Below, in pieces: positions 2,838 through 50,689 of a DNA stretch of 64,000 nucleotides. The notes below the pieces were generated by a model, which saw nothing but the letters and a program-made list of their open reading frames with translations, had not been told where the DNA came from and did no database searches. Position 1 is the stretch's first letter; each line of letters starts with the position of its first letter. A program made the translations under genes and the position numbers. The stretch is from a virus, in IMG/VR virus record IMGVR_UViG_3300045988_123906; one strand, written 5' to 3'.

Positions 2838-2856
2838 TAAAATCGTAAATAAAAAA

Positions 2857-3120: not shown

Positions 3121-3140
3121 GAAATCATAAAGGAGAAACA

Positions 3141-5589: not shown

Positions 5590-5605
5590 TTGGAATGATT
5601 TGAAA

Positions 5606-5809: not shown

Positions 5810-5833
5810 TTTACATAGAAAGGATGAAGATCA

Positions 5834-6655
5834 ATGGCAGAACCGGCACGTAAGCGCAAGGATCGCGTAGTTCAGTTCCCGCAACAGCCTGGTTCCGAAG
5901 CTCACATCACCATGAGCGAAGCCGAGCTGAAGGAAATGATTTGGGACATCGTGGCTGCCGCTCGCAAGAAAAAGCGCAAGACAAAGCCAACCAACAGCCT
6001 TTATACAAAGGATGGCCGCATCAAACCTTCGCCTGCTGATCCGATTCGTTCCAAAGAGGATTTCCAGAAACTGGCGAATTATCTCGCTTCCAACGGCGAC
6101 CCCAAGTTTCGTCTACGCAACAAGGCGATTTTCGTGTTCGGGTGCAGTCTGGGTATTCGTTGTGGCGATCTTCTCAGTCTGAAAACGGCCGATGTTTACG
6201 AACAGGATGGCAGTGTGAAAGAGCATGTCGAACTGATCGAAGAAAAGACCCGTAAGCGCAATGTGTGCAAGATCCCTAAGATGGCAGCTGACATTCTTGA
6301 GGATTATTTCGATGAACAGAATTTCGAGATTAGTCAATCTGATTATCTGTTTCGCAGTCGCAAGGGTGGTCCTCTGACAGTGCGCGGATTTTATCGGATC
6401 TTGAAAGAAGCAGGGAAAGCGTGTGAGCTAGATATCGATCTGTCCACTCATACCATGCGCAAAACCTATGCAATGGCTGCACTTCAGACAGCGAAAAAAG
6501 CTGGTACATCTGGGCAAACGATCGAGATGCTTCAAGAAAAGTTTAAGCATAGCAGCCAGCGTGTCACGATGCATTATGTCAAGGCAGACCAGGATAAGAT
6601 GGACGAAATGTCTGATCGTGTGTCGGACTGGTTCGATGATGGAGGAACGGAATGA
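5834..6655 (+). CDS. tyrosine recombinase (catalytic domain only, 273 aa) embedded in the paralog array
   Basis: Catalytic residues: R in LGIRCGDLLSLK, HxxR in STHTMRKTYA, H..Y in KHSSQRVTMHYV. Confidence 0.85.
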   Translation: MAEPARKRKDRVVQFPQQPGSEAHITMSEAELKEMIWDIVAAARKKKRKTKPTNSLYTKDGRIKPSPADPIRSKEDFQKLANYLASNGDPKFRLRNKAIFVFGCSLGIRCGDLLSLKTADVYEQDGSVKEHVELIEEKTRKRNVCKIPKMAADILEDYFDEQNFEISQSDYLFRSRKGGPLTVRGFYRILKEAGKACELDIDLSTHTMRKTYAMAALQTAKKAGTSGQTIEMLQEKFKHSSQRVTMHYVKADQDKMDEMSDRVSDWFDDGGTE

Positions 6656-6927
6656 CTGATTACATGTATCACCCAGGCGACAGAGTCCGCGTTCGACTTG
6701 ATCTTTCGGAACATGAAGAATATAAAATGTTGTCTGGCGAAAATAAAGGTCAACGCTGGGTGATTTTTGACTGGATGAAAAAATACGCAGGACAAGAGAT
6801 CGTCATTCAAAAGATCGCACAAACTAGTGGTGTTTACAGAGCACAAGGAATCGATGGCTGCATCTGGGCTGATGAGATGTTTGAGCCGCTTGTCGTGGAC
6901 GAGTGCGTTTGTGATTCATTGCTGTAA
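6652..6927 (+). CDS. small protein, paralog family copy C
   Basis: 91 aa. PGDRVRVRLDL..YKMLSG..WADEMF..CVCDSLL. ATGA overlap with the recombinase stop. Confidence 0.75.
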   Translation: MTDYMYHPGDRVRVRLDLSEHEEYKMLSGENKGQRWVIFDWMKKYAGQEIVIQKIAQTSGVYRAQGIDGCIWADEMFEPLVVDECVCDSLL

Positions 6928-6948
6928 TGGAATGGAGGAAGTAGAGCA

Positions 6949-7221
6949 ATGTCAAGATATTATCAGTATAAAAACGGAGAGGAAGTGTTTGTTCGACCTG
7001 ATCTGGAGCGCGGTGTTCAGTATTATATGCGTTCCGGTTACCGAGCAAATGATGTCAGTGTCACCCTTACTTATTCTCAGGCGCAGCGGCTTGGCACTGT
7101 GGTTCATATTGCCGGCAAGCGCAATGGCCGCTATTACATCGATGAAGATTATGGGTGCGATCGGTGGACGGACGAGATGTTCGCAGCACCCAACGAATGT
7201 ATCTGTACGCCGCTGCTGTGA
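6949..7221 (+). CDS. small protein, paralog family copy D
   Basis: 90 aa. NGEEVFVRPDL..YYMRSG..WTDEMF..CICTPLL. GGAGGA RBS. Confidence 0.75.
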   Translation: MSRYYQYKNGEEVFVRPDLERGVQYYMRSGYRANDVSVTLTYSQAQRLGTVVHIAGKRNGRYYIDEDYGCDRWTDEMFAAPNECICTPLL

Positions 7222-7229
7222 GGTGAATT

Positions 7230-7493
7230 ATGGAAGGGAAATACCTGTACGAAATTGGCGACCTCGTAAAAGTTCGCGACGATATTGATCGAAACATGTA
7301 GTATCGTATGCGTTCCGGTCCCAAAGCTGGACGCGAACCCGGGACTGTATATAATATCGGAAAATATAAGGGGTCAGTCCACAAAATCATTTCTTATGAG
7401 CAGGGTTATTACAAAATCGATAATGACCCTGATCATCTGTACTGGTCTGATGAAATGTTTGAGCCGATGTCGGTAAACGAAAGCCAACAGTAA
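7230..7493 (+). CDS. paralog family copy E, interrupted by an in-frame TAG (7299-7301); lacks the CxC tail
   Basis: MEGKYLYEIGDLVKVRDDIDRNM*YRMRSGP...YWSDEMF. Family homology is continuous across the TAG. GAGGTGA RBS before ATG 7230. Confidence 0.6.
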
Positions 7494-7509
7494 CATTGTG
7501 ACATTGGAT

Positions 7510-7659
7510 ATGTCGGAACTTCATGGGCAGTTGGTTCATATTAAAGATTATTCTTCTCACGGGCACTATATCGTAGAAGAAACATATGATTTTAGATGGA
7601 CTGATGACATGTTTTCTGGTTTGGCAAACAATGAGTGCTGCTGCGAATCTCTGTTATAA
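7510..7659 (+). CDS. 5'-truncated paralog family copy F (C-terminal half only)
   Basis: 49 aa. ...GHYIVEETYDFRWTDDMFSGLANNECCCESLL. Matches only the second half of the family. May be a remnant. Confidence 0.45.
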   Translation: MSELHGQLVHIKDYSSHGHYIVEETYDFRWTDDMFSGLANNECCCESLL

Positions 7660-7670
7660 GGAGGCACAAG

Positions 7671-7961
7671 TTGCAAGATACAAAATATCATGTAGGCGAT
7701 GTCGTTATTGTCCGCCAGGATTTAGATTTTAGAAAATGTTATTGGATGCGATCAGGTGGAAAAGAAAACGCTCCTTGGAGGAACGTTGTTTCAGATGTTG
7801 TAACTGAAGACATGATAGAGCTTTGTGGACAGACTATCGAAATCGAAGAAATAGTCGATACGGTCGATGGTAAAAAATACAGAGCAAGAGGTCGCTACTG
7901 GACAGACGACATGTTTTCTGACCAAATCGGCAATGAATGTTACTGTGAATCACTTCTGTAA
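7671..7961 (+). CDS. small protein, paralog family copy G (TTG start)
   Basis: AAGGAGG then TTG at 7671. VGDVVIVRQDL..YWMRSG..YWTDDMF..CYCESLL. Confidence 0.7.
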   Translation: MQDTKYHVGDVVIVRQDLDFRKCYWMRSGGKENAPWRNVVSDVVTEDMIELCGQTIEIEEIVDTVDGKKYRARGRYWTDDMFSDQIGNECYCESLL

Positions 7962-9497: not shown

Positions 9498-10325
9498 ATG
9501 GTTAAAGCAAATCATTATAAAATCAGTTCTTTTCCTGACGGTACTCCGCTGATCAAGAAGGATCTGACCATCAATTATCTCAACGTGATCAGTATCGTCT
9601 GGACGTTTGAATCTATGGCCGAGCTTCCAACGGTCATTATGATCGCAAAGGATGCAAAGGATAACGGTGCAGAAGTTGAGCTGTTCATGCCGTATATCCC
9701 GAACGCTCGTATGGATCGCGCCTATCACGACGAAGATGTGTTCACCCTCAAGTGGTTCGCTGACGAGATCAATCGGTGCGGATTCAGCTGCGTTACCGTG
9801 TTTGACCCTCACAGTGATGTGGCCCCGGCATTGATCAATCGGTGCGAAGTACATACTCCGATTCGTGAAATCTGTCAGGTAATCGAGGAGAGCAAGCCAG
9901 ATGTGATCTATTTTCCGGATACCGGCGCAATGAAACGATATGAAGGGACTGTTCACTGGGCACTGGATCGAGCAAAGTGCAGTGCCTATATCATCCATGG
10001 CGATAAAAAGCGGGACTGGGCAACGGGCAAAATTCTCGGTTTGGATGTTGTTGGTGAAGTGAAGCCTGGTGAAAAGGTTTTGATGATCGATGATATCTGT
10101 TCTTACGGTGGCACTATGTTCTATTCGGCCAAGAAGCTGAAGGAACTGGGTGCTGGTGATATCGATATGTATGTCAGCCACTGCGAAAACAGCATTCTGG
10201 ATTCTGAGCGTGGCCATCTGTTTGATGATCCAGAACTGATTCACAAGGTTTATACCACAGACAGTATCTTCACCGGCCATCACGACAAGATCACTGTTTT
10301 AGAGCGTCATTGGGGCGAGGACTGA
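9498..10325 (+). CDS. ribose-phosphate pyrophosphokinase (Prs) homolog; candidate ADPR-pyrophosphate synthetase (Adps) of NARP1
   Basis: Prs motifs FPDGT, YIPNARMDR, DPHS, and the PRPP-binding loop VLMIDDICSYGGT. Adjacent to a NAMPT-family gene. Confidence 0.75.
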   Translation: MVKANHYKISSFPDGTPLIKKDLTINYLNVISIVWTFESMAELPTVIMIAKDAKDNGAEVELFMPYIPNARMDRAYHDEDVFTLKWFADEINRCGFSCVTVFDPHSDVAPALINRCEVHTPIREICQVIEESKPDVIYFPDTGAMKRYEGTVHWALDRAKCSAYIIHGDKKRDWATGKILGLDVVGEVKPGEKVLMIDDICSYGGTMFYSAKKLKELGAGDIDMYVSHCENSILDSERGHLFDDPELIHKVYTTDSIFTGHHDKITVLERHWGED

Positions 10326-10326
10326 T

Positions 10327-10584
10327 ATGAAGTATGCAAAAGGTGAAATCCTTAGTGCATATCAGCGCTTAACGAAAAGTATCAAATATGGAGATGCATA
10401 CTGGTCTGAAAAAGCAATGATAAGTGATGTTCTGAGTGATTACTTCAATCGGATCGAGAGCAAGAAAGTTGTAATCGATCCAAAATATGAAAGCTATAGA
10501 TGTCCAAAGTGCAATACAACGTTAATTGGTCAATATGATCACTATTGCGGACAATGTGGTCAGAAATTGGACTGGAGGATTTGA
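10327..10584 (+). CDS. small zinc-ribbon protein
   Basis: CPKCNTTL...YCGQCGQKL (CxxC..CxxC). Confidence 0.55.
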   Translation: MKYAKGEILSAYQRLTKSIKYGDAYWSEKAMISDVLSDYFNRIESKKVVIDPKYESYRCPKCNTTLIGQYDHYCGQCGQKLDWRI

Positions 10585-10585
10585 A

Positions 10586-12064
10586 ATGATCAATATCAAC
10601 CCGATGCTGCTGTGCGATTTCTACAAGACGACTCACAGTAAGCAGTTTCCGGCCGGCACTACCAAGCTGGTCAGTTATTTTACTCCACGCATGAGCCGAC
10701 TGGATGGCGTGGATGAAGTCGTTGTGTTCGGCATTCAGGCGTTCTGCAAGGATTATCTGGTACGATATTTCAACGACAATTTCTTCGACGAACCAAAGTG
10801 TATTGTAGTTCCTCAGTACAAGCGTGTCCTGGATGCGACCATTGGTAAGGATGCTTACGATCTAAGCAAGATTGCAGCGCTACATGATCTGGGATATCTT
10901 CCTGTTGAAATCAAGGCACTGCCAGAAGGTACTCGTTGCCCAATCCATGTGCCGTTTCTGGAGATGAGCAATACGCATCCTGATTTCGCATGGGTTCCGC
11001 AGTTCCTCGAATCTTTTATGAGTTCTGAGCTGTGGCATCCAATGATTTCTGCAACGGTCGGAACTCTGTATCGCGATATTGTGGACAAGTATTACGATGA
11101 AACCGTTGAGGATGGCGTGCCTCATGCTCGTGCTTTGGGTGATTTCAGTTTCCGTGGTCAGGAGTGTATGCAGTCGGCAGTTAAGTCAAGCGCCGGTTGG
11201 TGTCTGAGTTTTCTGAATACGGCTACTGTCCCTGCGATTCCGTATCTGGAAGAAATGTATCGCTGCAATTGCGAAGAAGAGCCCGTTGCGTTTGGCGCTG
11301 TCAGTACCGAGCATAGTGTGATGTGTTCTAACTTCGCTGTCGATGGCGACGAGATCACTTTCATCCGCCGGGCGCTGACGGAGCTGTATCCCAATATGAG
11401 CTTCAGTATGGTGTCTGATTCCTACGACTACTGGAATCTGGTCGATAATATCCTGCCGCAGCTCAAGGATGAAATCATGGCTCATAATGGTACGCTGCTG
11501 ATCCGTGGCGACTCTGGCGAACCGGTCGAAATCGTCACGCAGACGGTCTATCATCTGTGGGATATCTTCGGCGGCACAGTCAACAGTAAGGGCTACAAGG
11601 TGCTCGATCCTCATGTGAAGGCTCTGTACGGCGATTCCATCACTGTGCAGCGCTGCGAAAAGATTTATGCCGAACTCAAAGCACACGGTTTCGCCTGCAA
11701 CAATGTCAGCCTGGGTGTTGGCTCTTTCTCTATGCAGTGCATCGAGCAGAATGGCCAGTTGAAGCCGTTCACTCGCGATACGTTCGGCATGGCAGTCAAG
11801 GCAACTTATGGCGTGGTCAACGGCAAAGAGATTCAGATCTTCAAGGACCCCAAGACCGACACCGATCATTTTAAGAAGAGTCTGAAGGGTATGTGTTATG
11901 TCACTAAGGATGATTCTGGAAAGCTGGTTTGTACTGATGGTCTGATGGATCACGCTGCTCATTCGGATGGTAACCTGTTGCAAACCGTATTCCGTAATGG
12001 CGCGATGGTCAAGGAGTACAGTTTAAAGGAAGTTCGTGAGCGACTGTGGGGAGGGAAGTTCTAA
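10586..12064 (+). CDS. nicotinamide phosphoribosyltransferase (NAMPT/NadV) family; candidate Namat of NARP1
   Basis: GGAGGA RBS then ATG 10586. N-terminal NPMLLCDFYKTTH and overall length are typical of the NAMPT/NAPRTase family. Confidence 0.75.
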   Translation: MININPMLLCDFYKTTHSKQFPAGTTKLVSYFTPRMSRLDGVDEVVVFGIQAFCKDYLVRYFNDNFFDEPKCIVVPQYKRVLDATIGKDAYDLSKIAALHDLGYLPVEIKALPEGTRCPIHVPFLEMSNTHPDFAWVPQFLESFMSSELWHPMISATVGTLYRDIVDKYYDETVEDGVPHARALGDFSFRGQECMQSAVKSSAGWCLSFLNTATVPAIPYLEEMYRCNCEEEPVAFGAVSTEHSVMCSNFAVDGDEITFIRRALTELYPNMSFSMVSDSYDYWNLVDNILPQLKDEIMAHNGTLLIRGDSGEPVEIVTQTVYHLWDIFGGTVNSKGYKVLDPHVKALYGDSITVQRCEKIYAELKAHGFACNNVSLGVGSFSMQCIEQNGQLKPFTRDTFGMAVKATYGVVNGKEIQIFKDPKTDTDHFKKSLKGMCYVTKDDSGKLVCTDGLMDHAAHSDGNLLQTVFRNGAMVKEYSLKEVRERLWGGKF

Positions 12065-12537
12065 TGGCTGTTGTAATCAAAGAAGGTAATGTGTTTGATT
12101 CTGACGCTAAGATCATCTGTCATCAGGTGAATTGTCAGGGCGTTATGGGGTCTGGTGTTGCCAAAGAAGTTCGTGAGCGGTATCCAAAGGTGTACGAGAA
12201 ATATCACACTTACTGCGAAAGCAACAAGGATTGTCCTGAACGAATGCTGGGTGTCGCTCAGATGGTTCCAGTTGATGAAAAAGGTTCTCGATGGATCGTC
12301 AATTGCTTCGGTCAGAACAGTTATGGATATGACGGAAAGCAGTACACGTCTGTTGGCGCACTGTTTGAAGCATTCAAAGAAGTGGCCAAAATCGCCAAGG
12401 CATCAGGAGTTAAAGTAGCTATGCCGTATGGAATCGGCTGTGTTCGTGGCGGCGCAAAATGGCTGCTTGTGAAAGAAATTATCGATTTTACATTTAAAGA
12501 CGTTGACGTGGAACTGTGGAAACTGGAGGGTAAATAA
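12064..12537 (+). CDS. macro-domain protein (ADP-ribose binding/hydrolase)
   Basis: KIICHQVNCQGVMGSGVAKEV matches the macro-domain N..G.G(I/V)A core. TAATG overlap with the upstream stop. Confidence 0.75.
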   Translation: MAVVIKEGNVFDSDAKIICHQVNCQGVMGSGVAKEVRERYPKVYEKYHTYCESNKDCPERMLGVAQMVPVDEKGSRWIVNCFGQNSYGYDGKQYTSVGALFEAFKEVAKIAKASGVKVAMPYGIGCVRGGAKWLLVKEIIDFTFKDVDVELWKLEGK

Positions 12538-12538
12538 T

Positions 12539-13303
12539 ATGCGCAAGTATGAATTTGACGCAGCAAAAACCAAGGATGAAATCGTCGAGTGGATTCGGAA
12601 CTATTTCCGCAAGAATGGCCCCGACTGTAATGCGGTGATCGGTATCTCTGGTGGCAAGGATTCCAGTATCGTGGCTGCTCTGTGCTGTGAAGCGCTGGGC
12701 AATGGCCGTGTAATCGGTGTTTTGATGCCCCAGGGTGCTCAGAGTGATATCGATGTGGCACGGGAACTGGTCGCCCATCTGGGTATCAAGTCCTTCGAGA
12801 TCAATATTGCGGAAACTGTGAATGCGCTGCTGGCCAATGGACGGGCAGCTGGTCTGTGCGATTCCAAGCAGGCTCGTGTGAATCTGCCGGCACGAATTCG
12901 TATGGCGACTTTGTTCATGGTGAGTCAGAGTATGAATGGGCGAGTAGCTAACACTTGCAACGCTTCAGAAAATTTCGTCGGATGGCAAACTGTGGGAGGG
13001 GATGGATTTGGTCAGTTCAGTCCTCTCAGTAAGCTGACTGTCACTGAGGTAAAAGCCGTTGGTCGTGAGTTGGGTCTTCCTGAAAAGTTCATCGAGAAAG
13101 CGCCTGCAGATGGACTGACTGGCAAAACCGACGAGGATAATTTCGGCTTTACCTATGACTTCCTCGACAAGTACATTCGCACTGGTGATTTCGGCGGTGA
13201 CACTGCAACTGCAGCCAAGATCGATCGAATGCACGATGCGAACGCATTCAAACTGTTGCCGATGCCTGTGTATAAATCTAATTTTTACAAGGTTGAGTGG
13301 TAA
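12539..13303 (+). CDS. nadE: NH3-dependent NAD+ synthetase
   Basis: PP-loop VIGISGGKDSS. Length and C-terminal features fit NadE. Confidence 0.8.
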   Translation: MRKYEFDAAKTKDEIVEWIRNYFRKNGPDCNAVIGISGGKDSSIVAALCCEALGNGRVIGVLMPQGAQSDIDVARELVAHLGIKSFEINIAETVNALLANGRAAGLCDSKQARVNLPARIRMATLFMVSQSMNGRVANTCNASENFVGWQTVGGDGFGQFSPLSKLTVTEVKAVGRELGLPEKFIEKAPADGLTGKTDEDNFGFTYDFLDKYIRTGDFGGDTATAAKIDRMHDANAFKLLPMPVYKSNFYKVEW

Positions 13304-22838: not shown

Positions 22839-22891
22839 CCTTTACCATTCACACTTTACACTGTCATTATGATGAATAGGAGGTGATTGAA

Positions 22892-23422
22892 ATGAGAAAG
22901 ACGATTGCAGCCATTATTGTAACCGGCGTTTATCTGCTGACAAATCTACTCGGCGTGGAAGCAGCTGGTCCGGTCGAGACATACCAGGGCTGGAGCGATG
23001 AACTAAAGTCGTATACGCAGTCTGTATGTGACGAATACAATGTCGATTATTCGTTGGCGCTCGGTGTGATCTATAACGAAAGCAGGTTCCAAAGTGGCCT
23101 GACTCACGTGAATTCAAACGGCACAGTTGATTACGGTCTGATGCAGGTCAACGAGGTCAACTTCGATTATCTCAACAAGACGCTTGGCGTTCGATCCATG
23201 TCTGAACTGCTGGATGATAAAACGGGCATCAGATGTGGTGTTCAGCTGCTGGCGTATCATAAGCAGTACACTGGCAACGATTCGGCGGCGCTTCTTCGCT
23301 ACCAGATCGGGGCAGGGAAGTACAAACAGTACCTGAGGAAAGGTCGGTACACAAACCAGACGCATCAACAGGTGCTTACATATCAGAGCGAACTCGCTTC
23401 TTATATGGATTCCTTACAGTAG
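22892..23422 (+). CDS. secreted lytic transglycosylase (SLT domain); ends at TAG
   Basis: Signal-like N-terminus. YNESRFQ (catalytic Glu) and DYGLMQVN. One of only three called genes ending in TAG. Confidence 0.75.
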   Translation: MRKTIAAIIVTGVYLLTNLLGVEAAGPVETYQGWSDELKSYTQSVCDEYNVDYSLALGVIYNESRFQSGLTHVNSNGTVDYGLMQVNEVNFDYLNKTLGVRSMSELLDDKTGIRCGVQLLAYHKQYTGNDSAALLRYQIGAGKYKQYLRKGRYTNQTHQQVLTYQSELASYMDSLQ

Positions 23423-23492
23423 GAAAAAGATCAGGCGGCAGAAAAACGTCTGTTTGATCTGATCAATCGGTGGAGTGAATCCACCTTTATAT

Positions 23493-23564
23493 GCTGGAGT
23501 GGCGCAATGGTAGCGCAGGAAATTTGTAATTTTCAGGTTGCAGGTTCAAGCCCTGTCTCCAGCA
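23493..23564 (+). tRNA. tRNA-Thr (UGU)
   Basis: Hand-folded cloverleaf: GCTGGAG/CTCCAGC acceptor, GCGC D-stem, anticodon loop TTTGTAA, TTCAAGC T-loop, encoded CCA. Confidence 0.8.
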
Positions 23565-23620
23565 CCATTAGAACAGCGGGCAACCGCATCAAAGATTATG
23601 TATTACAAAGGAGAATAATT

Positions 23621-24262
23621 ATGACTACTGAAACTATGACAATTCATCGCGCACTGGCCGAGCTGAAGGTTTTGGACGATCGTATCATGAAGCTGCTGAG
23701 CGAGGCCAAGTTTTGTGGTGCCGCTAAGAATTGTATGCAGAAGCTGGGCGGTGTAACTATTGAAGAGTACAAGCAGAATGCCCAGTCTACTTATGATAAG
23801 ATCACTGATTTGATGGCTCGTCAGGCAGCGATTAAGCGGGCGGTGTCCGAGTCCAATGCGGTTACTCATGCTGTTGTATGTGGACATGATTATACTGTTG
23901 CGCAGCTTATTTGGATGAACCAGCACGGCATTGATTTCAAGAGTACTTTGCTCAATGTTCTGGAGCGTCAGTATGCAAGCGCAGTTGCTGCTACTGAGGC
24001 TGCAAACTCCAAGCTGAGTGATAAGGCAGATGATTTTATCAGCAGAAACAACGCTGGCGCAGACAAGAACAGTATGGATGCGGAAGCTATTAAGGATATG
24101 CGAGAGAGCTACATTGAGCGTGAAACCATGCAGCTGGTCGACGGTATCAACATCAAGAAGGTCAAGGAAGAACTGGCTGATGAGATCAATAAGTTCAAGG
24201 CTGAGGTTGACGCGGTTCTGTCTACTTCTAACGCCATGACTGAGATCACAATCGAATACTGA
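23621..24262 (+). CDS. hypothetical coiled-coil protein
   Basis: AAAGGAG RBS then ATG 23621. The longer ORF-track version (23507) starts inside the tRNA-Thr gene. Confidence 0.6.
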   Translation: MTTETMTIHRALAELKVLDDRIMKLLSEAKFCGAAKNCMQKLGGVTIEEYKQNAQSTYDKITDLMARQAAIKRAVSESNAVTHAVVCGHDYTVAQLIWMNQHGIDFKSTLLNVLERQYASAVAATEAANSKLSDKADDFISRNNAGADKNSMDAEAIKDMRESYIERETMQLVDGINIKKVKEELADEINKFKAEVDAVLSTSNAMTEITIEY

Positions 24263-24447
24263 TATTTAATCAGCGAAGCATATTCACTGTCTATCGAAAA
24301 CGACAAACTGTAATCGTTCGTTCTTTGCTGATGGTAGCCTGCTTGAACGAAATCAAATAATAAAAAAGCTAATAACCATTCATATAAAAGCTGGCCTCAT
24401 AAGCCGACAAGATGAAATCAAGTAAAATATTTGGTAATACTTGAATT

Positions 24448-24518
24448 TTTGGATTTGTCAAGAGGTTAAGACGCAAGCCTATAAGCTTGAAACGATGGTT
24501 CGAATCCATTATCCAAAA
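24448..24518 (+). tRNA. tRNA-like gene with an aberrant 6-nt anticodon loop (CTATAA); identity undetermined
   Basis: TTTGGAT/ATCCAAA acceptor and GATGG-TTCGAAT-CCATT T-arm are canonical. The CAAGC/GCTTG anticodon stem encloses only 6 nt. Confidence 0.45.
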
Positions 24519-24793
24519 AAATCGAATCAAGAGAAGGAGTTGTCCCAAGGGCCAACACGTAGTTGATTCAAATGTCTTGGAAAGGTTAACGGTTATTGAT
24601 TTAAAGGTTAAAGGTTGAAAGTTCAAAGCTTAAACTTCTAGCTAAAGATTAAACAGTAATGAATACAGGTCAAAGGTTTATAAAATCCATGGGCACAGGT
24701 TTGTGGATCGATTACATAAGTCCCGTTGTTTACCACATGGCTGGTAGATGGTGAGCGCCTTGGCAGGGGCGTAACAATACCTGCCGTTTATAT

Positions 24794-24867
24794 GGTTCGG
24801 TAGCTCAGAAGGATAGAGCACTAGCCTGTCACGCTAGGGGTCGTGGGTTCAATCCCCATCCGAATCG
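24794..24867 (+). tRNA. tRNA-Asp (GUC)
   Basis: Cloverleaf with anticodon loop CTGTCAC and T-loop TTCAATC. Confidence 0.8.
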
Positions 24868-24872
24868 CTTAT

Positions 24873-24946
24873 GGTCCTATAGTTCAGTTGGTTAGAACGA
24901 GAGACTGTTAATCTCTATGTCACCTGTTCGAGTCAGGTTAGGACCT
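24873..24946 (+). tRNA. tRNA-Asn (GUU)
   Basis: GGTCCTA/TAGGACC acceptor, anticodon loop CTGTTAA, T-loop TTCGAGT. Confidence 0.8.
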
Positions 24947-24952
24947 CTTCGT

Positions 24953-25025
24953 GGTTCTGTAGCTCAGTCGGTAGAGCAGGGGACTGAAAATCCCTGTGTC
25001 GCTGGTTCGATTCCAGCCGGGACCA
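24953..25025 (+). tRNA. tRNA-Phe (GAA)
   Basis: TAGCTCAGTCGGTAGAGCA D-arm, anticodon loop CTGAAAA, T-loop TTCGATT, encoded CCA. Confidence 0.8.
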
Positions 25026-25028
25026 CCA

Positions 25029-25489
25029 ATGTGCAAGTTGATTTGATAATTGAGTTTGGTCGAAATCCTCCATAAAAAGGTTGTCCGCCAAGGTCGAAAA
25101 ATCAACATGAATTCTCACCAAAATGATGTTATCAATGAAATTTGTAATAGGATTAGCGAGGCAGTCACACTCCTGATCAGGGGCCGATGTAGCAAGCTTG
25201 GTCAAACTGCGTGCCCTGACGATGATAAGATCCGCATTCCAGGCGCAACTGTGCGTGAGTCTCACCAACCCGAAAACAGTGAGAGGTGAAGGAATAACAC
25301 TGAAAAACCTTATGTAGCGCGGCTATAACCCGGAAGAGGCTTGACCCAAAAGGATGATCGAGTTTGAGAACCGCAGTGGATAAGCATATCGCCAATAGTG
25401 CTCTGAAGAGTAACGGTAAATGCCGGACGCCTGACCCGTTAAAGCCAGGACGAGGATCACAGGTGACATCCCTCTGTGATCTATATTAT
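25029..25489 (+). ncRNA. candidate large structured ncRNA between tRNA-Phe and tRNA-Lys (class unknown)
   Basis: 461 nt without a convincing ORF or RBS. GC-richer than its flanks. Many local helices, e.g. GATCACAG/CTGTGATC (25455-25482), CTCAC/GTGAG (25260-25282), AACGG/CCGTT (25412-25440). Confidence 0.3.
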
Positions 25490-25562
25490 GCGATCGTAGC
25501 TCAATTGGTAGAGCACTTGACTTTTAATCAAGGGGTAGCGGGATCGTAACCCACCGATCGCA
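25490..25562 (+). tRNA. tRNA-Lys (UUU) with atypical T-loop
   Basis: GCGATCG/CGATCGC acceptor, anticodon loop CTTTTAA. T-loop ATCGTAA (A54/U58 instead of T54/A58) and one T-stem mismatch. Confidence 0.6.
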
Positions 25563-25720
25563 CCACGCGGACCACGCAGTAAGTAGTTTTCGAGTTACAA
25601 CTATTGTAGCCAGTGTTCTTTGGATACGATTGTATTGTTAGTAGTTCTGCGGAAGGAACAAAAACATAAACAGATGACTGCTGGAAATACAACATACATT
25701 TTGATTTTGAGGGTTCAAAA

Positions 25721-26512
25721 ATGAAAGAAAGAGTCTGTGGTATTTATAAAATCGAAAATAAAATAACGCATCAGGTATATATAGGGCAATCAAGATATAT
25801 AGCACGTAGATAGAGAGACCATCGTGTGAAAAGTCAAAGAAAAGACAATGAGTGGTTTCACAGTAGACTTTATACTGCTATGTATGGCCACCTTGACGAT
25901 TTTGATTTTTCGATAATTGAAGAATGCGATCAATCAAAATTAAATGAAAGAGAAATATATTGGATTGACTATTATAAAAGTACAGAGCCGATATACGGAT
26001 ACAATATTCTAATCGGCGGGGATGTAAGTGAACATAATAGAATATTAGGGCAAAATCAATTAAATGAAATAGCCAATCTTTTAGCGACAACAGATCTTAC
26101 TCAAACAGAGATTGCAAATAGATTTGGAGTAGGGCAGCGAACAGTAAGTAGTGTGAATACGGGATATTACAATCTTGACAAAAAGTATATTTTCCCGATC
26201 CGTGATAAAAAACATGTGACTGGGAAAATAAAAGAGCGAGTTGAACAAAAGAAAGCTAGGTTAAATGGACGGGATAAGGGTATGACCGGAATATGTTGCG
26301 ATTGCGGCGGTCCATGTTCTGCTAAAGCAAAACTTTGTCGCTCATGCATGGACAAAACCCGTATTTCAAAACGCCCTGATAAAGATACTTTATTAGGGCT
26401 AACTAAAACAATGACTGTTAGTGAAATAAGTCGCGAATTCAATGTTTCTAGTACTACGGTAAAAAAATGGTGCTCACATTATGGAATTATACCAGAAAGA
26501 AAATACAAGTGA
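25721..26512 (+). CDS. GIY-YIG homing endonuclease with in-frame TAG at 25811-25813
   Basis: MKERVCGIYKIENKITHQVYIGQSRYIARR*RDH... The GIY and YIG motifs lie before the TAG. The same frame continues with NEREIYWIDYYK, GYNILIGG, a Zn-finger CCDCGGPC..CRSC and a C-terminal HTH. Confidence 0.75.
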
Positions 26513-26540
26513 TATTAACATGATTTAATAAAGAGTTTAT

Positions 26541-26613
26541 GCGCCTGTATCTTAATTGGTAAAGAAATGGGCTCTAAACCCAGGGTATCCGTGTTCGAAT
26601 CATGGCAGGCGTG
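26541..26613 (+). tRNA. amber suppressor tRNA, anticodon CUA (26574-26576)
   Basis: Canonical 73-nt cloverleaf. GCGCCTG/CAGGCGT acceptor (G1-U72), TCTT/AAGA D-stem with G18G19, anticodon loop CTCTAAA (U33, A37), CCGTG-TTCGAAT-CATGG T-arm, G73, encoded CCA. Confidence 0.8.
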
Positions 26614-26667
26614 CCAAACAAATTACATAACAGTATCCCTTATTTTATAGAAAGGAGATCGAACATT

Positions 26668-26961
26668 ATGGCAATGATTGATCCGTATGATGATGACTTC
26701 GGTGCCATTTGTAATTGTGCTGTTCGATACGCAGTTGGGCGCAGAACGTATATGCCTGGTCTTGTGATCGATTTCATTACATCGCATCTGAGCGAGTTGA
26801 CAGATAAAACGCTATGGTGCTTTCAGCAGGATCTATATCAACGTCTGGATGAAGGGTTTAATTTTGGTGATGAATTTGATTTTCAAAACTGGATGAGCTT
26901 TCTGGAAGATGTTGATAAAGAAATCAAGAAAAGAAAACAGCCCAGCGGCCATAACCACTGA
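26668..26961 (+). CDS. hypothetical protein
   Basis: AAAGGAG RBS then ATG 26668. The ORF-track start (26602) lies inside the suppressor tRNA. Confidence 0.55.
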   Translation: MAMIDPYDDDFGAICNCAVRYAVGRRTYMPGLVIDFITSHLSELTDKTLWCFQQDLYQRLDEGFNFGDEFDFQNWMSFLEDVDKEIKKRKQPSGHNH

Positions 26962-27225
26962 GCTGTCAGGATTACCCGATGACGTGATTCATCTGCAGAA
27001 CCATCAGTATGAGCCCGACGATACTGCAAATGTCACCAGCGACATCAAGAAAATCTTTCGCCTAACGCTTCATCTAAGCACCTCCAATCCGCTCGAGACG
27101 CGAGAACAATGTCCGTCATTGAGTAACTGGTGTGTCTAGTGAGAGTTAAGTTGGCAAAAGTGTATCACGTTGTTACGCGATTGTCAAGAATCATCCCGAG
27201 CATGATGTGAAAAGGCTTGTTATAT

Positions 27226-27310
27226 GCGGCAATGGCTGAGTGGTTTAAAGCGGTGGACTTGAAATCCATTGATGGTAATACATCCGCGAGTTCGAATCTT
27301 GCTTGCCGCG
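27226..27310 (+). tRNA. tRNA-Ser (UGA)
   Basis: Long variable arm, anticodon loop CTTGAAA, T-loop TTCGAAT, GCGGCAA/TTGCCGC acceptor. Confidence 0.75.
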
Positions 27311-27316
27311 TGATGT

Positions 27317-27388
27317 GGCCTGTTAGTCAAGAGGTGAAGATGCTGCCCTTTCACGGCGGAGACATCGGTTCAATTCCGGTACAGGCCA
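27317..27388 (+). tRNA. tRNA-Glu (UUC)
   Basis: GGCCTGT/ACAGGCC acceptor, anticodon loop CTTTCAC, T-loop TTCAATT. Confidence 0.75.
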
Positions 27389-27421
27389 TTTTTTGAAAAT
27401 TAAATATTGTGAGGTATCAAA

Positions 27422-27649
27422 ATGAAAACAGAAGATTGGATCTCCGTAAAAACTGATTTGCCGAAAATTCCAGACGGCGAGATTTGGAGCAAAAATGTTT
27501 GGATTTATGATGAGAAATACGGACAGCAACAAGGGTATTTTACAACTGATGGGGTATGGTATGAGTTGAACGAGTGTCTTTGGCTAAAAAATGTTACACA
27601 TTGGATGCCTCTGCCAGAAGACCCGCCAAAGGAGAAAAATGAATCATGA
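27422..27649 (+). CDS. DUF551-like phage protein
   Basis: WISVKTDLP...VTHWMPLPEDPP pattern, remembered from DUF551 proteins. Confidence 0.55.
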   Translation: MKTEDWISVKTDLPKIPDGEIWSKNVWIYDEKYGQQQGYFTTDGVWYELNECLWLKNVTHWMPLPEDPPKEKNES

Positions 27650-28398
27650 AAACGACGAAGAAAGATTGGATCTATCGTGTGATTCTTCTGATTCTGTTGG
27701 CGATTATCTGGGACATTGGCGCGGCTTTGACTTCGCCAATTTTTGTTCCCCAGAAAGGCGCTGTGTTTCGGGAATTCTTCCTGTTGATCCAAAATGGAAC
27801 AATGTTGAAAGCATTCCGATATTCGCTGGTTCGCATTACGGTGGCAGCCGCTTTGAGTGCCGGCATCTCCATTCCTCTTGGCTGTCTGATGAAAATCTGT
27901 CATCCGCTTCAAAAGCTGCTCTATCCAGCAATTCGAGCAATGCGATTTTTGCCAGTCACTGCATTCTATCCACTGTTGACTATGTGGTTTGGAATCGGAG
28001 AGAAAATGAAGATTGCTTTCTTATTTGTAGCCAGCTTTGTGTTTATGCTTCCAAGCGTTCTGATTGCCATGGATGATGTCAGTGATGATGTGATCGAGGC
28101 GGCCAGCATTGATGGAGCAGGGAAGTTCAGCACAGTAACACGAATCGTCTTCCCAATCGCAGCGCCTTCCATCTGTCAGTCATTCGCCACAATGTATGCC
28201 ATCGGTTGGACCTATATCGCAGTGGCCGAGACAGTGAATGCGAAGTACGGTATTGGCTATCTGATCTATACTTCGTCCGCTCGTGGCCGTACATCTCTGG
28301 TGTTTGTTGGAATATTGGCGATTGTGATTTTCAGTATTCTGTTTGACTGGATCACAAATATCTGTATCAAGAAGATTTTTAAGTGGAAATTTTCATAA
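27646..28398 (+). CDS. ABC transporter permease (NitT/TauT, SsuC/TauC-like)
   Basis: Multi-pass hydrophobic protein with the EAA loop EAASIDGAGKFSTVTRIVFPIAAP. Confidence 0.8.
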   Translation: MKTTKKDWIYRVILLILLAIIWDIGAALTSPIFVPQKGAVFREFFLLIQNGTMLKAFRYSLVRITVAAALSAGISIPLGCLMKICHPLQKLLYPAIRAMRFLPVTAFYPLLTMWFGIGEKMKIAFLFVASFVFMLPSVLIAMDDVSDDVIEAASIDGAGKFSTVTRIVFPIAAPSICQSFATMYAIGWTYIAVAETVNAKYGIGYLIYTSSARGRTSLVFVGILAIVIFSILFDWITNICIKKIFKWKFS

Positions 28399-28408
28399 GG
28401 AGGACAAC

Positions 28409-28624
28409 ATGTCGCATGAAATTGAGTTGTGTGGTTGTTTGACCATCCCAGATAACGCGAATTTTGATGAAATCACAGACGTGTTCTTGGGTTTTGTTGA
28501 GTCGCATGGTTGGTACTATGGTGGTGGGTTCTCTGAGATTCGAGACGGCTGTTATGTGAAGCCGGACGTAACTAGTGGTGATCCAATTTATAAATCAAAT
28601 AAGGAGAAAGATTATGGCACATGA
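28409..28624 (+). CDS. small protein, paralog pair member 1
   Basis: MSHEIELCGCLTIPDN...FVESHGWYYGGGFSEIRDG. About 45% identical to the next ORF. Confidence 0.55.
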   Translation: MSHEIELCGCLTIPDNANFDEITDVFLGFVESHGWYYGGGFSEIRDGCYVKPDVTSGDPIYKSNKEKDYGT

Positions 28625-28826
28625 AATTAAAATTATGGGATGTCTGAGTATTCCAGATAATACAAGCTGGGAGGAGTCAATAAGTTTATTTGTTGAATTT
28701 ATCGAGTCACATAATTGGTGCTATTATGGGGATTTTGCTGAGATTCGTGATGGAAAGCAAGTAGGTTATGGCGTAATAAAAAAAGAAAACGAGGAGAAAA
28801 ATTATGGCGAAGAAAAGTCTATTTGA
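28614..28826 (+). CDS. small protein, paralog pair member 2
   Basis: MAHEIKIMGCLSIPDN...FIESHNWCYYGDFAEIRDG. AAGGAG RBS. Confidence 0.55.
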   Translation: MAHEIKIMGCLSIPDNTSWEESISLFVEFIESHNWCYYGDFAEIRDGKQVGYGVIKKENEEKNYGEEKSI

Positions 28827-29424
28827 AAAACTCGGTCTTGTTGAGGGTGTAGCTGCTTCTGAATATGATATGCCGGATACCACGAATGAGCTTCGCGTTT
28901 GTAGTGGCGTCGGAGATCATTACATCAATGGAGATTTCCCAGAGGACGAACCGGTTCAGGTCGAGGTTCCTGAGGGCGATACCATCGATGTCCGGGCGGT
29001 TTACGAGACCAATGGTATGAACCCTGCCGACGCTGTTACTGTCTACAAGATCAAAGATGTGATCGATACATTCCCGTCTGAGATGCCCACCAAAACAAAA
29101 CGAGCAACGGTCAAAAACCTGATGACGACGCTTGGTTATGATGCGGCCGCGATTATCTCTGATGCGAAGCAGCGCAAGGAGCTTCTGCGGGCTGTTGGTA
29201 ACGATAAGATGAATGCACTGTTTGACGAGATGAAGAGCAACGACCAGCAGATTGAATCTATGAAGGAACAGATCGAAGCTTTGACGAATCGCAACGTTGA
29301 AGCTGGTGCGGCCATCGAAAAGATCACCAATACAGTTCAGGATGAACTCAAGATGATTTCTTCTATCGAGGAATTTATCGAAGAGGATAAGACGGAGCCT
29401 GCCGGGAAGGAGGTCGCCCAGTAA
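28804..29424 (+). CDS. hypothetical protein with coiled-coil C-terminus
   Basis: 206-aa ORF with AGGAGAAAA RBS. Confidence 0.55.
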   Translation: MAKKSLFEKLGLVEGVAASEYDMPDTTNELRVCSGVGDHYINGDFPEDEPVQVEVPEGDTIDVRAVYETNGMNPADAVTVYKIKDVIDTFPSEMPTKTKRATVKNLMTTLGYDAAAIISDAKQRKELLRAVGNDKMNALFDEMKSNDQQIESMKEQIEALTNRNVEAGAAIEKITNTVQDELKMISSIEEFIEEDKTEPAGKEVAQ

Positions 29425-30254
29425 TGTTTTCTTTCACGATTGCTGAGTTTACTTTTCTCTGTGTTGGTTTCGCCTTTGTTGGCAGTTTAATTCTGTTTCC
29501 GTCATTCCGTCAGCAGCTCAAAGCTCTTGCCGGTGGTTTCTTGCAGGTCTTTGTGCAGGATACAGCCAAGACACCAGATGGTGCACGCGCTATCTATGCT
29601 CAGAAGATCGATGAGATGACTGAGAAATACACAGATGCCTGCAATACTCTGCGAGACCTGACTGGTAAGCTCAAGACGATTCAGGATAACTACGCTGTCT
29701 GTCAGAAGCAGGCGAAAGGTTACGATGAACGTGCAAAGGCTGCTATGAGTCGCGGTGATGAAGAGTCCGCAACCACTTACGCTCGTCTTTTACAGGAAGA
29801 GCTCGATAAAGCCGAGAACCTATCTGCTCAGTTCCAAAAAATGAAACCAGCGGCGGAAGAGGTCAAGGCAATCAAGGAAAAGCTTGAAAATCAGTTGGCT
29901 GCTCTGAAGCGCGAAAGCAAGGATGTGGTGGCCGAATTGAAGGCGAACGAACAGGTTGCAGATGTGTATTCCAATCTGGATCGTCTGCGTGCATCTACCG
30001 GAACCGATAAAATGCTCAACGCTACCCGTGATGGCCTTCAGGAAAGTCGCGAAAAAGCAGCGGGTGCAAAGGTTCTGTATCAGACTAGTCGAGAGGGAAA
30101 GCTGGATAAAGCGGACGCAAATACTGCTGATTATAAGGTGAGTTCGTATCTGGATAGTCTCAAAAGGAGCAATCCAAACGTAACAACTTACAGCATTCCT
30201 GATCTGAATACCCTCACAAAGTCTTCTGGATTGAACACTCAGTCCAAGAAATAA
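29424..30254 (+). CDS. membrane-anchored PspA/IM30-like coiled-coil protein (tentative)
   Basis: N-terminal TM segment, then long heptad-rich helices (ARAIYAQKIDEM...SRGDEESATTYARLLQEELDKAENL) resembling the PspA/Vipp1 family. Confidence 0.45.
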   Translation: MFSFTIAEFTFLCVGFAFVGSLILFPSFRQQLKALAGGFLQVFVQDTAKTPDGARAIYAQKIDEMTEKYTDACNTLRDLTGKLKTIQDNYAVCQKQAKGYDERAKAAMSRGDEESATTYARLLQEELDKAENLSAQFQKMKPAAEEVKAIKEKLENQLAALKRESKDVVAELKANEQVADVYSNLDRLRASTGTDKMLNATRDGLQESREKAAGAKVLYQTSREGKLDKADANTADYKVSSYLDSLKRSNPNVTTYSIPDLNTLTKSSGLNTQSKK

Positions 30255-30281
30255 AATCAAAATTAAATAGGAGAGAATAAC

Positions 30282-31862
30282 ATGTCTAAGTTCAAATTGA
30301 CTAAGGCTGGCCGTGCTGTTGTTGGCGTGGTTCTTGCGGTAGCTGTTGCTATTGGTGTCGTTGGCGGCATCAAGGGCGGTGTGATTAAGTTCGACAAGAA
30401 AAAGCCAACTGCATCTGATAAGCCTGCCACGAATGTCACCACGAATGCATCAACCGGCGACGACACGATCAATCTGTCTCTGGATGAATGGGCGGGATGG
30501 TTGAGCTGTATCACAGCAAATGGCGGTCTCACCACTCAGCCCGGTTCTGTGTTTGACCAGCTCGGCATCAAAGTGAATATCAATGTCATCAACGACGCTA
30601 CTGAGTCCAGCAATGCACTGATCTCTGGTGATCTGCAGGCCGCTGGTTATACTACGAACCGTGTCGCGTTCCTGTCTCAGAAGTTTACGGATGCCGGTAA
30701 GAATATCATCATGCCGGTGTTTACTAACTACAGCTATGGCGGAGACGGTATTATCGCTTCCACTCAGTTTGCAGATGTGAATTCGTGGGTCAATGCCAAG
30801 ATCGGCGTTCCTGAATTCTCTGAGGCCGAAACCTTGGTCGCTTGGTTTGTCAATAATTCCAACCTGTCCGATGCGGATAAGGCAACCATTATGAACAACC
30901 TGATCATGTTCGGTACGGCAGATGATACTGCTAAAGCATACTTTGCTGGTCAGATCGATGTTGCTGCAACATGGGAGCCGTACCTGACTCAGGCTAAGAC
31001 CTATACCAACAGCACCGTTGTTTTTGATACCAAGTCTTCTTCTTCTCTGGTCATGGATGGCATTGTGTTTGATGCCGATTGGGCAGCAGCTCACGAAGAT
31101 ACTGTCAAGAAGTTCGTCAAGGGTATTCTGATGTCTTATGATCAGCCCATCAATTACGACGCAGCTCGTGAAGTGTTCCCGATGTATTCTACTTCCAGTG
31201 ATGCAGATATCGACGCTACTTACGCCAATGCCAAGATGGCCAGCTGGAAGGACAATTACAACATTCTAAACGATACTGCTCCCATGATCTATAACCAGAT
31301 GTGCGATATCTGGGAGGCTCTGGGCGAAACCGTCAATCGCGGCCTTGTGGACACGATTTTTGATACCACTTATATTGACGCTCTGAAAGGTGATTTTAAG
31401 TCTACTTCCGCCGCAAATGCCACCACAAAGGTGACTGTAAGTGACGAAACCCGTGCCAATATCACCCAGCAGGTCACTGGCAATCTGGATTATGATTCCA
31501 TGCTGAGCAAGACCGCCAATGTAACATTTGTCCCGGATTCTTCTGTGTTCACCGATCAGGCCAGCGCAGCCTCTGTTCTGGATGATTTCGTAAATATCGC
31601 CAAGACTCTGGATGGCACAATGATCGTTATCAACGGCAATATCAATGCGGACACTCAGACCGAGTTCGGTGTGCAGCTCTCTGCAAATCGTGCTCAGACT
31701 GTTGCCAACTATCTGGCTTCTCAGGGTATTGATCAGAATCGACTGATTATTACAGGCTCTGGCAATGCAAAGTATCAGGCCGACAAGGCTGCTGGTGCTC
31801 TGAAGCCGGATGCAAGCGTATACCAGTCTACCGATATCAGCTTTATGCGAATCGAGAACTGA
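30282..31862 (+). CDS. membrane-anchored ABC substrate-binding-like domain (NMT1/TauA type) fused to a C-terminal OmpA/MotB peptidoglycan-binding domain
   Basis: N-terminal TM. INLSLDEWAGW...GYTTNRVAF is SBP-like. The C-terminus LSANRAQTVANYLASQGIDQNRLIITGSGNAKY is the OmpA-like motif. Confidence 0.65.
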   Translation: MSKFKLTKAGRAVVGVVLAVAVAIGVVGGIKGGVIKFDKKKPTASDKPATNVTTNASTGDDTINLSLDEWAGWLSCITANGGLTTQPGSVFDQLGIKVNINVINDATESSNALISGDLQAAGYTTNRVAFLSQKFTDAGKNIIMPVFTNYSYGGDGIIASTQFADVNSWVNAKIGVPEFSEAETLVAWFVNNSNLSDADKATIMNNLIMFGTADDTAKAYFAGQIDVAATWEPYLTQAKTYTNSTVVFDTKSSSSLVMDGIVFDADWAAAHEDTVKKFVKGILMSYDQPINYDAAREVFPMYSTSSDADIDATYANAKMASWKDNYNILNDTAPMIYNQMCDIWEALGETVNRGLVDTIFDTTYIDALKGDFKSTSAANATTKVTVSDETRANITQQVTGNLDYDSMLSKTANVTFVPDSSVFTDQASAASVLDDFVNIAKTLDGTMIVINGNINADTQTEFGVQLSANRAQTVANYLASQGIDQNRLIITGSGNAKYQADKAAGALKPDASVYQSTDISFMRIEN

Positions 31863-32023: not shown

Positions 32024-32096
32024 TGTGCTATAGCCAAGTCGGTCAAGGCAAGGGACTTTGACTCCCTGATCGTGTGTTCGAGTCACACTAGCACAA
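32024..32096 (+). tRNA. tRNA-Gln (UUG)
   Basis: TGTGCTA/TAGCACA acceptor (U1-A72), TAGCCAAGTCGGTCAAGGCA D-arm, anticodon loop CTTTGAC, T-loop TTCGAGT, encoded CCA. Confidence 0.8.
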
Positions 32097-46284: not shown

Positions 46285-46974
46285 ATGAAAGTCGAATTGA
46301 TTTCATATTCACAGCCGGCAAAGAAAGATGCAGACAAGAATCCGCTCAGTATCGCAGAGCTGGCCGCAAGCGTTTGTTATGATTCTGAGCCGACCGAGAC
46401 TTATCGAATCGCAAAGGGATGTAGGGCGACCGGACACACCTCGGTGCTTGAACACATCAGCTTTACGTTCCATGTCACCGGTGTCAGTCGAGCACTTCTG
46501 GCGCAGTTGAGCCGCCATCGGCATATCAGTCTGAGTGTTCGCAGTCAGCGCTATTGTGATGAAAGTGTTATGCAGTATGTCAATCCATTCAGTGGAGAAG
46601 ACGCAGATGTATTTGATGGCATGATGGCAGATATCGCCAATGACTATCGCATCTTAAAAGAGTATCACGGTGCTGCCAACGAAGACGCTCGTGCTGTTTT
46701 GCCGAATGCCTGCTGTACTGAACTTTATGTCACCATCAACGCACGGTCACTGATTGAAATGAGCCACCTGCGGCTCTGCACTCGTGCCCAGCGTGAGATC
46801 CGGGGATTGTTTATGGCAATCAAATTCCAGGTTTCTCAGGTTTGCCCCGAACTCGGCGCATGGATGGTTCCGTCCTGTGAAGCGAATCCTAAGTATCCGT
46901 TCTGTCCCGAGGGGAGCCGCTGCTGTGGCCGCCATCCGAAGCTGGCAGATGTTTATAAAACTATTGAGAAGTAA
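46285..46974 (+). CDS. thyX: flavin-dependent thymidylate synthase
   Basis: ThyX signature RHRHISLSVRSQRY (RHRxxSxxxxSxR). Confidence 0.85.
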   Translation: MKVELISYSQPAKKDADKNPLSIAELAASVCYDSEPTETYRIAKGCRATGHTSVLEHISFTFHVTGVSRALLAQLSRHRHISLSVRSQRYCDESVMQYVNPFSGEDADVFDGMMADIANDYRILKEYHGAANEDARAVLPNACCTELYVTINARSLIEMSHLRLCTRAQREIRGLFMAIKFQVSQVCPELGAWMVPSCEANPKYPFCPEGSRCCGRHPKLADVYKTIEK

Positions 46975-46985
46975 GGAGCGTACAT

Positions 46986-47966: not shown

Positions 47967-47983
47967 TTTGGAGGTGATGGAAT

Positions 47984-50440: not shown

Positions 50441-50467
50441 TAATTAAAGAAAGGCAGGTGATATCGC

Positions 50468-50650: not shown

Positions 50651-50689
50651 ATAAATCAAGTAAGGGTGGGAGTGGTGGCATGAGAGGAT

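Follow-up and report, generated by a model that had tools for sequence, protein, structure and literature searches.

The 64,000-nt stretch of DNA analysed here (the window; IMG/VR virus record IMGVR_UViG_3300045988_123906) is organized in two blocks of opposite orientation. The early block, from position 1 to 59300, holds ∼91 + strand ORFs for replication and nucleotide metabolism, among them a DnaB-like helicase, a primase, an exonuclease, a 1082-aa DNA polymerase, a ligase, NrdD, ThyX, FolD, NAMPT, NadE and two tyrosine integrases. The late block lies on the − strand, from 59610 to beyond the window end, and encodes an endolysin, a holin, a membrane protein, tail-fibre-associated proteins and a tail fibre. 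The two tyrosine recombinase genes are at 5834–6655 and 56172–57536. The second (+ strand), whose product has Arm-binding, SAM-like and catalytic domains, is situated where the early module meets the late one, a boundary that coincides with the end point of one relative's contig. The tyrosine integrase at the junction suggests a temperate lifestyle, and an earlier note on this DNA had likewise described a temperate phage.

The window is a member of a family of more than 200 phage contigs of 110–150 kb, nearly all from the human gut. An exact 60-mer from the window end identified a 147,834 bp IMG/VR contig that is 93–96% identical over the shared parts, and the genome size of this phage type is ∼140 kb. 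A protein-anchored search with a baseplate-like protein gave 187 relatives, 80 of which were kept for the analysis of the late genes. The early region was sampled as 49 loci around the transglycosylase gene and the tRNA array, and additional loci from distant clades were collected separately. When bacterial genomes were scanned for a host, the sole match was a phage contig of 12 kb that had been assigned to a Peptococcaceae MAG; homologs in Clostridium perfringens phages and in Faecalibacterium phage FP_oengus are weak hints of a host in Clostridia or Faecalibacterium.

The early block also contains auxiliary metabolic genes, at 9498–13303, 27646–31862 and 46285–55499. The set comprises NAMPT-like, NAD synthase and PRPP-transferase-like genes; an ABC permease and a substrate-binding/OmpA-domain protein; and ThyX, NrdD and FolD. 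A reverse transcriptase gene (RVT_1; 3141–4373) adjoins a gene for a ThiF-family protein (2157–2837) with a gap of 300 nt. The 2157–4373 region could be a diversity-generating retroelement (DGR) or a retron-like element; a search of the window for the template/variable repeats of a DGR near the reverse transcriptase gave no such pair.

Ten tRNAs were called by ARAGORN in the window, all on the + strand. Nine make up an array at 23493–27389 inside the early module (ARAGORN and Rfam), in the order Thr, an odd tRNA at 24447, Asp, Asn, Phe, Lys, a suppressor, Ser and Glu. A tRNA-Gln(UUG) is encoded separately at 32024–32096, where the earlier note had placed it. We looked for a sigma-70-like promoter for the + strand array and found none. 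In relatives, the slot of the odd tRNA (24447–24519) is filled by tRNAs called Tyr(ata), His(atg), Leu(taa), Ser(tga), Gly(gcc) or Phe(gaa), and just upstream of it, at 24283–24374, there is a weak, sub-threshold match to the RAGATH-27 RNA (39 bits, with the gathering score at 76; E = 0.0065).

The suppressor gene (26541–26616, + strand) was called with the anticodon CTA; the label ‘Pyl’ that ARAGORN attaches to it is the tool's default for CUA. Positions 26541–26613 scored 57 bits against Rfam RF00005, for which the gathering score is 29. The anticodon loop is CTCTAAA, the D-loop carries GG (AATTGGTA), the T-loop is TTCGAAT, and G73 is followed by an encoded CCA; in the acceptor stem, a G1·U72 pair is followed by C2-G71. 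The canonical 73-nt cloverleaf with anticodon CUA that the earlier note had described from the letters is thus borne out by the tRNA scanner and the Rfam score. The ATG of the next gene (26668) follows the CCA end (26616) after only 51 nt. An Rfam E-value scan of 23300–27700, made with a release (Rfam 15) that possibly holds no theta model, gave no ribozyme beside the tRNA. We also tried to read the isotype by blastn against GenBank phages; this was abandoned as uninformative, the single weak match being an Acinetobacter-phage ‘tRNA-Pyl’.

This is a genuine, conserved tRNA: 44 of the 49 early loci of relatives have it, the five without it include truncated loci, and its sequence is found there in 15 variants. 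When 11 of these suppressor variants were aligned with three tRNA-Trp(CCA) genes, 98% of stem cells were paired and 16 of the 21 pairs showed both-sided (compensatory) changes, values that were reached in 0 of 500 shuffles. G1·U72, G73 and the CCA end were invariant across all 14 sequences. The anticodon loop reads CUCUAAA in the suppressors and CUCCAAA in the Trp tRNAs, the sole difference being position 35.

A comparison of gene order indicated where this tRNA came from. In sister clades (L131/L141, L181–187, L192 and L194) the slot between tRNA-Lys and tRNA-Ser is occupied by a tRNA-Trp(CCA), followed by a gene identical in kind to the downstream neighbour of the suppressor; in other relatives the slot is empty. 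The sister tRNA-Trp(CCA) genes are up to 77% identical to the suppressor, with the 5′ half nearly identical. The mean identity of the suppressor to phage Trp tRNAs is 67%, compared with 59% or less for any other isotype, and G73, G1·U72 and the CU-NNN-AA form of the anticodon loop are shared with phage tRNA-Trp(CCA). Position 2 differs: all 11 aligned suppressors have C2-G71, and the Trp(CCA) genes have G2. From the gene order, which we regard as decisive, and the similarity of the letters, we conclude that the suppressor descends from a tRNA-Trp. Some close relatives hold both a tRNA-Trp(CCA) and the CUA suppressor, and in one contig (IMGVR_UViG_3300045988_127336) a normal tRNA-Trp(CCA) lies at 12453–12528 of the L132 locus, between the Phe and Lys tRNAs. 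The window encodes only the suppressor, and its TGG codons must therefore depend on the host tRNA-Trp.

We next consider the TAG codons that this tRNA could read. The window contains 272 TAG triplets on its + strand and 557 on its − strand. The ORF listings agree with the earlier note, in which all but three of roughly 100 CDS ended in TAA or TGA: almost no real gene ends in TAG. All seven TAGs that had been singled out exist. Six lie within genes, at 7299, 25811, 60222, 61079, 62380 and 62851, the last four numbers being the low coordinates of − strand codons in the late module (59610–63921 and beyond). Homology extends over both sides of the TAG in the endolysin, the tail fibre, a DUF4376-like protein, a GIY-YIG endonuclease and a small paralog. 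The core of the earlier reading, that a phage amber suppressor tRNA allows in-frame TAGs to be translated, is supported by the tRNA, by these domains and by the relatives, and lysis and tail genes are affected as had been stated.

In the endolysin gene (59610–60257, − strand; Peptidase_M15_3 and PG_binding_1 by Pfam, with PHROG support), TAG is codon 12 (60222–60224). The M15 domain begins six residues past it, there is no start codon between the two, and the ATG at 60257 is preceded by a good RBS. Relatives have TAG at this codon in 33 cases and TGG in 20. The adjacent holin gene (60270–60623, − strand; phrog_6918, E = 6e-14) is free of TAG in the window. The membrane protein gene beyond it (60635–61138, − strand; phrog_1009) has TAG as codon 20 (61079–61081), where relatives have TAG 43 times and TGG six times; its ATG at 61138 overlaps the stop of a small upstream ORF (ATGA). 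In the phrog_20274 gene (61442–61897, − strand) all the Trp codons are TGG in the window, and six of them are TAG in some relatives.

The next two genes of the late block each contain a TAG that the earlier note had listed as a gene end followed by an open continuation. The gene for a tail-fibre-associated protein (61894–62616, − strand; Pfam, PHROG and relatives) matches DUF4376 only weakly, at 21.9 bits and under the Pfam cut-off of 25; its codon 79 (62380–62382) is TAG in the window and, in relatives, TGG in 35 and TAG in four. The tail fibre gene (62620–63921, − strand) has TAG as codon 357 (62851–62853), ahead of the C-terminal domain, with no start codon after it. At this codon relatives have TAG (14), TGG (2), TCY (4) or GGT (1). 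A tail protein of FP_oengus, encoded by a single ORF, aligns across this TAG; the column is variable in such outside homologs, which indicates read-through and not the identity of the amino acid. Because relatives show TGG or TAG at the internal codons, 61894–62616 and 62620–63921 are each one gene, and the open continuations past 62380 and 62851 are accounted for by internal Trp codons. Three of the four late TAGs of the window thus fall on TGG columns, and the fourth, at 62851, on a variable column that includes TGG.

Two TAGs are in the early block. One lies at 25811–25813 in a gene (25721–26512, + strand) for a homing endonuclease with Pfam GIY-YIG and HTH domains, and aligns to the W of ‘FEKRWKRHF’ in I-TevI (PDB 1mk0/1ln0). 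The endonuclease's own catalytic motif requires that this TAG be W. The gene ends 28 nt before the start of the suppressor tRNA. It was found only beside the window-type variant of the suppressor, at full length in three contigs and as C-terminal remnants in two, and the pair looks like a mobile endonuclease-plus-suppressor cassette. The other TAG (7299–7301) is in a small gene (7230–7493, + strand), one of five tandem paralogs of ∼90 aa at 5314–7961 that share the motifs ‘GD.V.VR.DL’ and ‘W.DEMF’; this paralog family is present in Clostridium perfringens phages and is multi-copy in MT835544. The alignment with the paralogs, and with homologs from Clostridium phages, covers the sequence before and after this TAG, and the column is variable, again indicating read-through and not the amino acid. 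Where the residue can be read from homologs, it is Trp: at the endolysin, membrane protein and DUF4376-like sites and in the alignment to I-TevI.

The seventh TAG, at 23420–23422, ends the gene for an SLT lytic transglycosylase (22883–23422, + strand; Pfam SLT), the sole candidate for a TAG-terminated gene in the window. All 42 of the close relatives have TAG here, and none has TGG. The frame past it is open for 59 to 279 codons, as the earlier note had seen; that continuation, however, meets a hairpin (GGTGGAGTGAATCCACC) with a T-run at 23469–23485, resembling a terminator, and then the tRNA-Thr gene at 23493, and shows no evident coding sequence. In several other clades the transglycosylase reading frame reaches the tRNA-Thr gene, enters it or passes right through it. 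This TAG is most likely a true stop, or at most a leaky one. Its role is ambiguous between a stop, a leaky stop and part of a switch linked to tRNA processing; as a working stop, it may mean that suppression is incomplete.

To identify the amino acid across the late genes, ORFs from the late region of a relative, with TAG taken as sense, were aligned by tblastn to the 80 loci, and codons were tabulated for each column holding a TAG. A column was called one-step where its commonest other codon was one mutation from TAG. TGG was that codon in 52 of the 56 one-step columns, compared with an expectation of 10.4% (binomial p = 2e-46). Viewed from the other side, 52 of 115 Trp columns carry TAG in at least one relative. 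Most TAG columns are of low frequency, with TAG in one to eight of about 60 sequences. On this comparative evidence TAG is predicted to be read as Trp, and a Gln reading is not supported.

The TAGs at Trp sites are distributed unevenly, both within genomes and between clades. In the close clade that has the CUA tRNA, the Trp columns of late genes contained 392 TAG and 5,688 TGG codons (6.4% TAG), whereas those of the early region contained 10 and 3,188 (0.3%), a ∼20-fold enrichment of late over early. The window itself shows the same trend, with four TAG to 26 TGG in late ORFs and two to 267 in early ones (p = 0.001). In the distant and sister clades, where the slot holds CCA or is empty, there was one TAG to 4,531 TGG, and the other TAGs of the distant clade are taken as true stops because they alternate with TAA. 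Among contigs from which both regions were recovered, TAG at Trp sites was seen in 18 of 18 with the CUA tRNA and in 0 of 7 with CCA or an empty slot (Fisher p = 2e-6).

The recoding is sparse and mostly limited to late genes; it is not genome-wide. Late genes carry one to 12 TAGs per 20 kb. In a crude one-strand ORF tiling, reading TAG as sense raised the coding density from 92.2% to 95.7% in late loci and from 78.3% to 80.8% in early loci, below the rise of 5–10% or more that is the usual criterion for recoding. Sparse recoding of this kind is probably missed by standard pipelines. Going by the codon counts, TAG appears to have become a minor synonym of TGG in the clade, at ∼6% in late genes (tail, baseplate and lysis) and ∼0.3% in early ones, and seems nearly to have vanished as a terminator.

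We consider it highly probable that a derivative of a phage tRNA-Trp, in which a C35-to-U change turned the anticodon CCA into CUA, decodes UAG as Trp in competition with the host RF1. The suppressor is in the early-strand tRNA array, and UAG decoding would begin once the tRNA is expressed. Since several late genes have a TAG close to the 5′ end (at codon 12 in the endolysin gene, for instance, and at codon 20 in that for the membrane protein beside the holin), the full-length late and lysis proteins would depend on the suppressor tRNA. Such genes might in this way be kept silent in the lysogen or early in infection.

An explanation that does without timing or a lysis role is neutral drift: once a Trp suppressor existed, changes from TGG to TAG became tolerable, and the TAGs are near-neutral or slightly harmful. 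The low frequency of most TAG columns, the small share of TAG among late Trp codons and the lack of sequence-context bias (the +4 base at TAG sites shows none; p = 0.70) are what drift would give. The late enrichment is not, nor is the fact that TAG is the majority allele at a few sites, among them the 5′-proximal codons of the endolysin gene (33 of 53) and of the membrane protein gene (43 of 49). We regard drift as a serious possibility, although we lean against it. It bears on the purpose of the recoding alone and leaves the decoding of TAG untouched.

Decoding as Trp raises the problem of how the tRNA is charged, presumably by the host TrpRS. In E. coli, a change of the tRNA-Trp anticodon to CUA takes the tRNA away from TrpRS and makes it a substrate of GlnRS (PMC2965240). 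Because E. coli TrpRS rejects this anticodon, Trp charging here needs a host TrpRS that tolerates U35, or another factor. Pfam and PHROG scans of about 45 window proteins gave no aminoacyl-tRNA synthetase and no release factor, and a further ∼45 kb of sequence from the family, like the window, yielded no gene for TrpRS or a release factor. A tblastn search of 5.1 Mb of family loci, with an approximate E. coli TrpRS sequence as the query, also gave no match to TrpRS; the loci and the window together cover about half of the genome.

The altered anticodon, a major identity element for TrpRS, together with the few TAG columns that include TAT or TAC, could also be taken to mean that the CUA tRNA carries some other amino acid that Trp sites tolerate (Tyr or Phe, for example), or that its charging is ambiguous and gives a mixture of Trp and Gln. 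We find this improbable. The suppressor has kept the G73 and acceptor-stem pattern that it shares with phage tRNA-Trp(CCA), TGG columns are overwhelmingly dominant, and the short variable arm speaks against bacterial Tyr.

Charging with Gln, so that TAG means Gln as in the standard phage code 15 of crAss-like phages, Lak phages and phAss-1 and as for E. coli su+7, was implied by the earlier label ‘code-15-like’. All published TAG recodings in phages are to Gln, with only TAG-to-Gln and TGA-to-Trp observed by Borges et al. (10.1101/2021.08.26.457843), and E. coli GlnRS does charge a tRNA-Trp(CUA) (PMC2965240). In the codon columns, three or four TAG columns pair with CAG. Against these, TAG is found in three of 151 CAG columns compared with 52 of 115 TGG columns; the alignment to I-TevI gives W; and Gln at conserved Trp positions would harm the proteins. 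The tRNA itself is orthologous to tRNA-Trp, and has C2-G71 in 11 of 11 aligned suppressors where Trp(CCA) has G2. G2-C71 is an identity element for GlnRS. The invariant C2-G71 and G1·U72 may have evolved to evade mischarging with Gln. Charging with Gln is therefore very unlikely in our view, and the label was wrong: 52 of the 56 one-step columns are TGG and three are CAG. Of the two origins that the earlier note had left open, Trp-like or Gln-like, the first stands on the codon columns and on the synteny with tRNA-Trp(CCA), and the second falls.

That the TAGs are sequencing or assembly errors, or inactivating mutations of defective prophages with which the tRNA has nothing to do, is scarcely credible: although the data are all metagenomic assemblies, identical TAG positions recur in dozens of independent contigs, random nonsense changes would be expected ∼9 times more often on AAG, CAG, GAG, TAT, TAC and TTG columns than on TGG columns, a pattern that was not seen, and a strict co-occurrence links the CUA tRNA to TAG at Trp sites.

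With TAG read as Trp, the phage can be set beside known systems. The code 15 gut phages (crAss-like, Lak, Garnet/Amethyst and phAss-1; Borges et al. preprint 10.1101/2021.08.26.457843; Peters et al. PMC9523058; Babkin et al. PMC10607447) likewise encode a tRNA(CUA), have in-frame TAGs in structural and lysis genes, and have been proposed to use them as a late or lysis gate. Here, however, the amino acid would be Trp rather than Gln, and the recoding is sparse, with a density change of less than four points. The phAss-1 group, which is alike in size (136 kb) and in recoding TAG, was rejected as a match for the window because it is a TAG-to-Gln lineage and showed no megablast similarity. The code 4 phages (Jade, Sapphire and Agate) resemble the present phage in turning a stop codon into Trp by means of a suppressor derived from tRNA-Trp and in the involvement of lysis genes; there the codon and anticodon are TGA and UCA, here TAG and CUA. 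Some code 4 phages encode TrpRS and RF1, whereas neither was found in the examined sequence of this phage.

Outside phages, the plastid code of Balanophoraceae (Balanophora; NCBI table 32) reads TAG as Trp. The codon change is the same, but it is a full reassignment in a reduced, AT-rich organelle genome, and not that of a virus in a host with the standard code. The E. coli suppressor su+7 arose by the same single anticodon change in tRNA-Trp, from CCA to CUA; su+7 is charged by GlnRS (PMC2965240), whereas here the comparative evidence favours Trp and the acceptor stem is different (C2-G71, G1·U72). A related case is the work of Kienbeck et al. (PMC10879173), who predicted a Trp isotype for 19.4% of 180 ribozyme-linked suppressor tRNAs of phages and referred to the ‘rarely reported code 32’. 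Like the present tRNA, these are amber suppressors of gut phages, and their assignment to Trp was an isotype prediction, without codon-level evidence; the theta-ribozyme-linked tRNAs adjoin an HDV-like ribozyme, and none was found flanking the tRNA described here. Our text search of the literature found no paper demonstrating TAG-to-Trp in a phage, and this reassignment appears not to have been shown previously at the codon level in phages.

For annotation, recoding this sparse evades detectors that rely on coding density, and the use of code 15 would put Q in place of W and leave tail-fibre and endolysin genes split or truncated. A natural amber suppressor that inserts Trp would also be a possible reagent for genetic-code engineers.

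In our judgement there is probably a natural UAG-to-Trp code in a widespread clade of gut phages, at an early, polymorphic stage, which arose by a C35-to-U change in a phage tRNA-Trp and from which sister clades that keep CCA and TAG stops have remained apart. The working rule has been that recoding in phages is confined to two changes, TAG to Gln and TGA to Trp, and it has been explained by what the host GlnRS and TrpRS will accept. A TAG-to-Trp clade would break this rule and make the enzyme that charges the CUA tRNA with Trp the biochemical question: if the reading is true, a bacterial TrpRS or a phage factor must do so, unlike in E. coli. It would also be a code change caught under way, with CCA and CUA alternating in one slot, TAG and TGG polymorphic at 52 Trp sites and TAG stops nearly gone, and models of codon reassignment would become directly testable in this clade.
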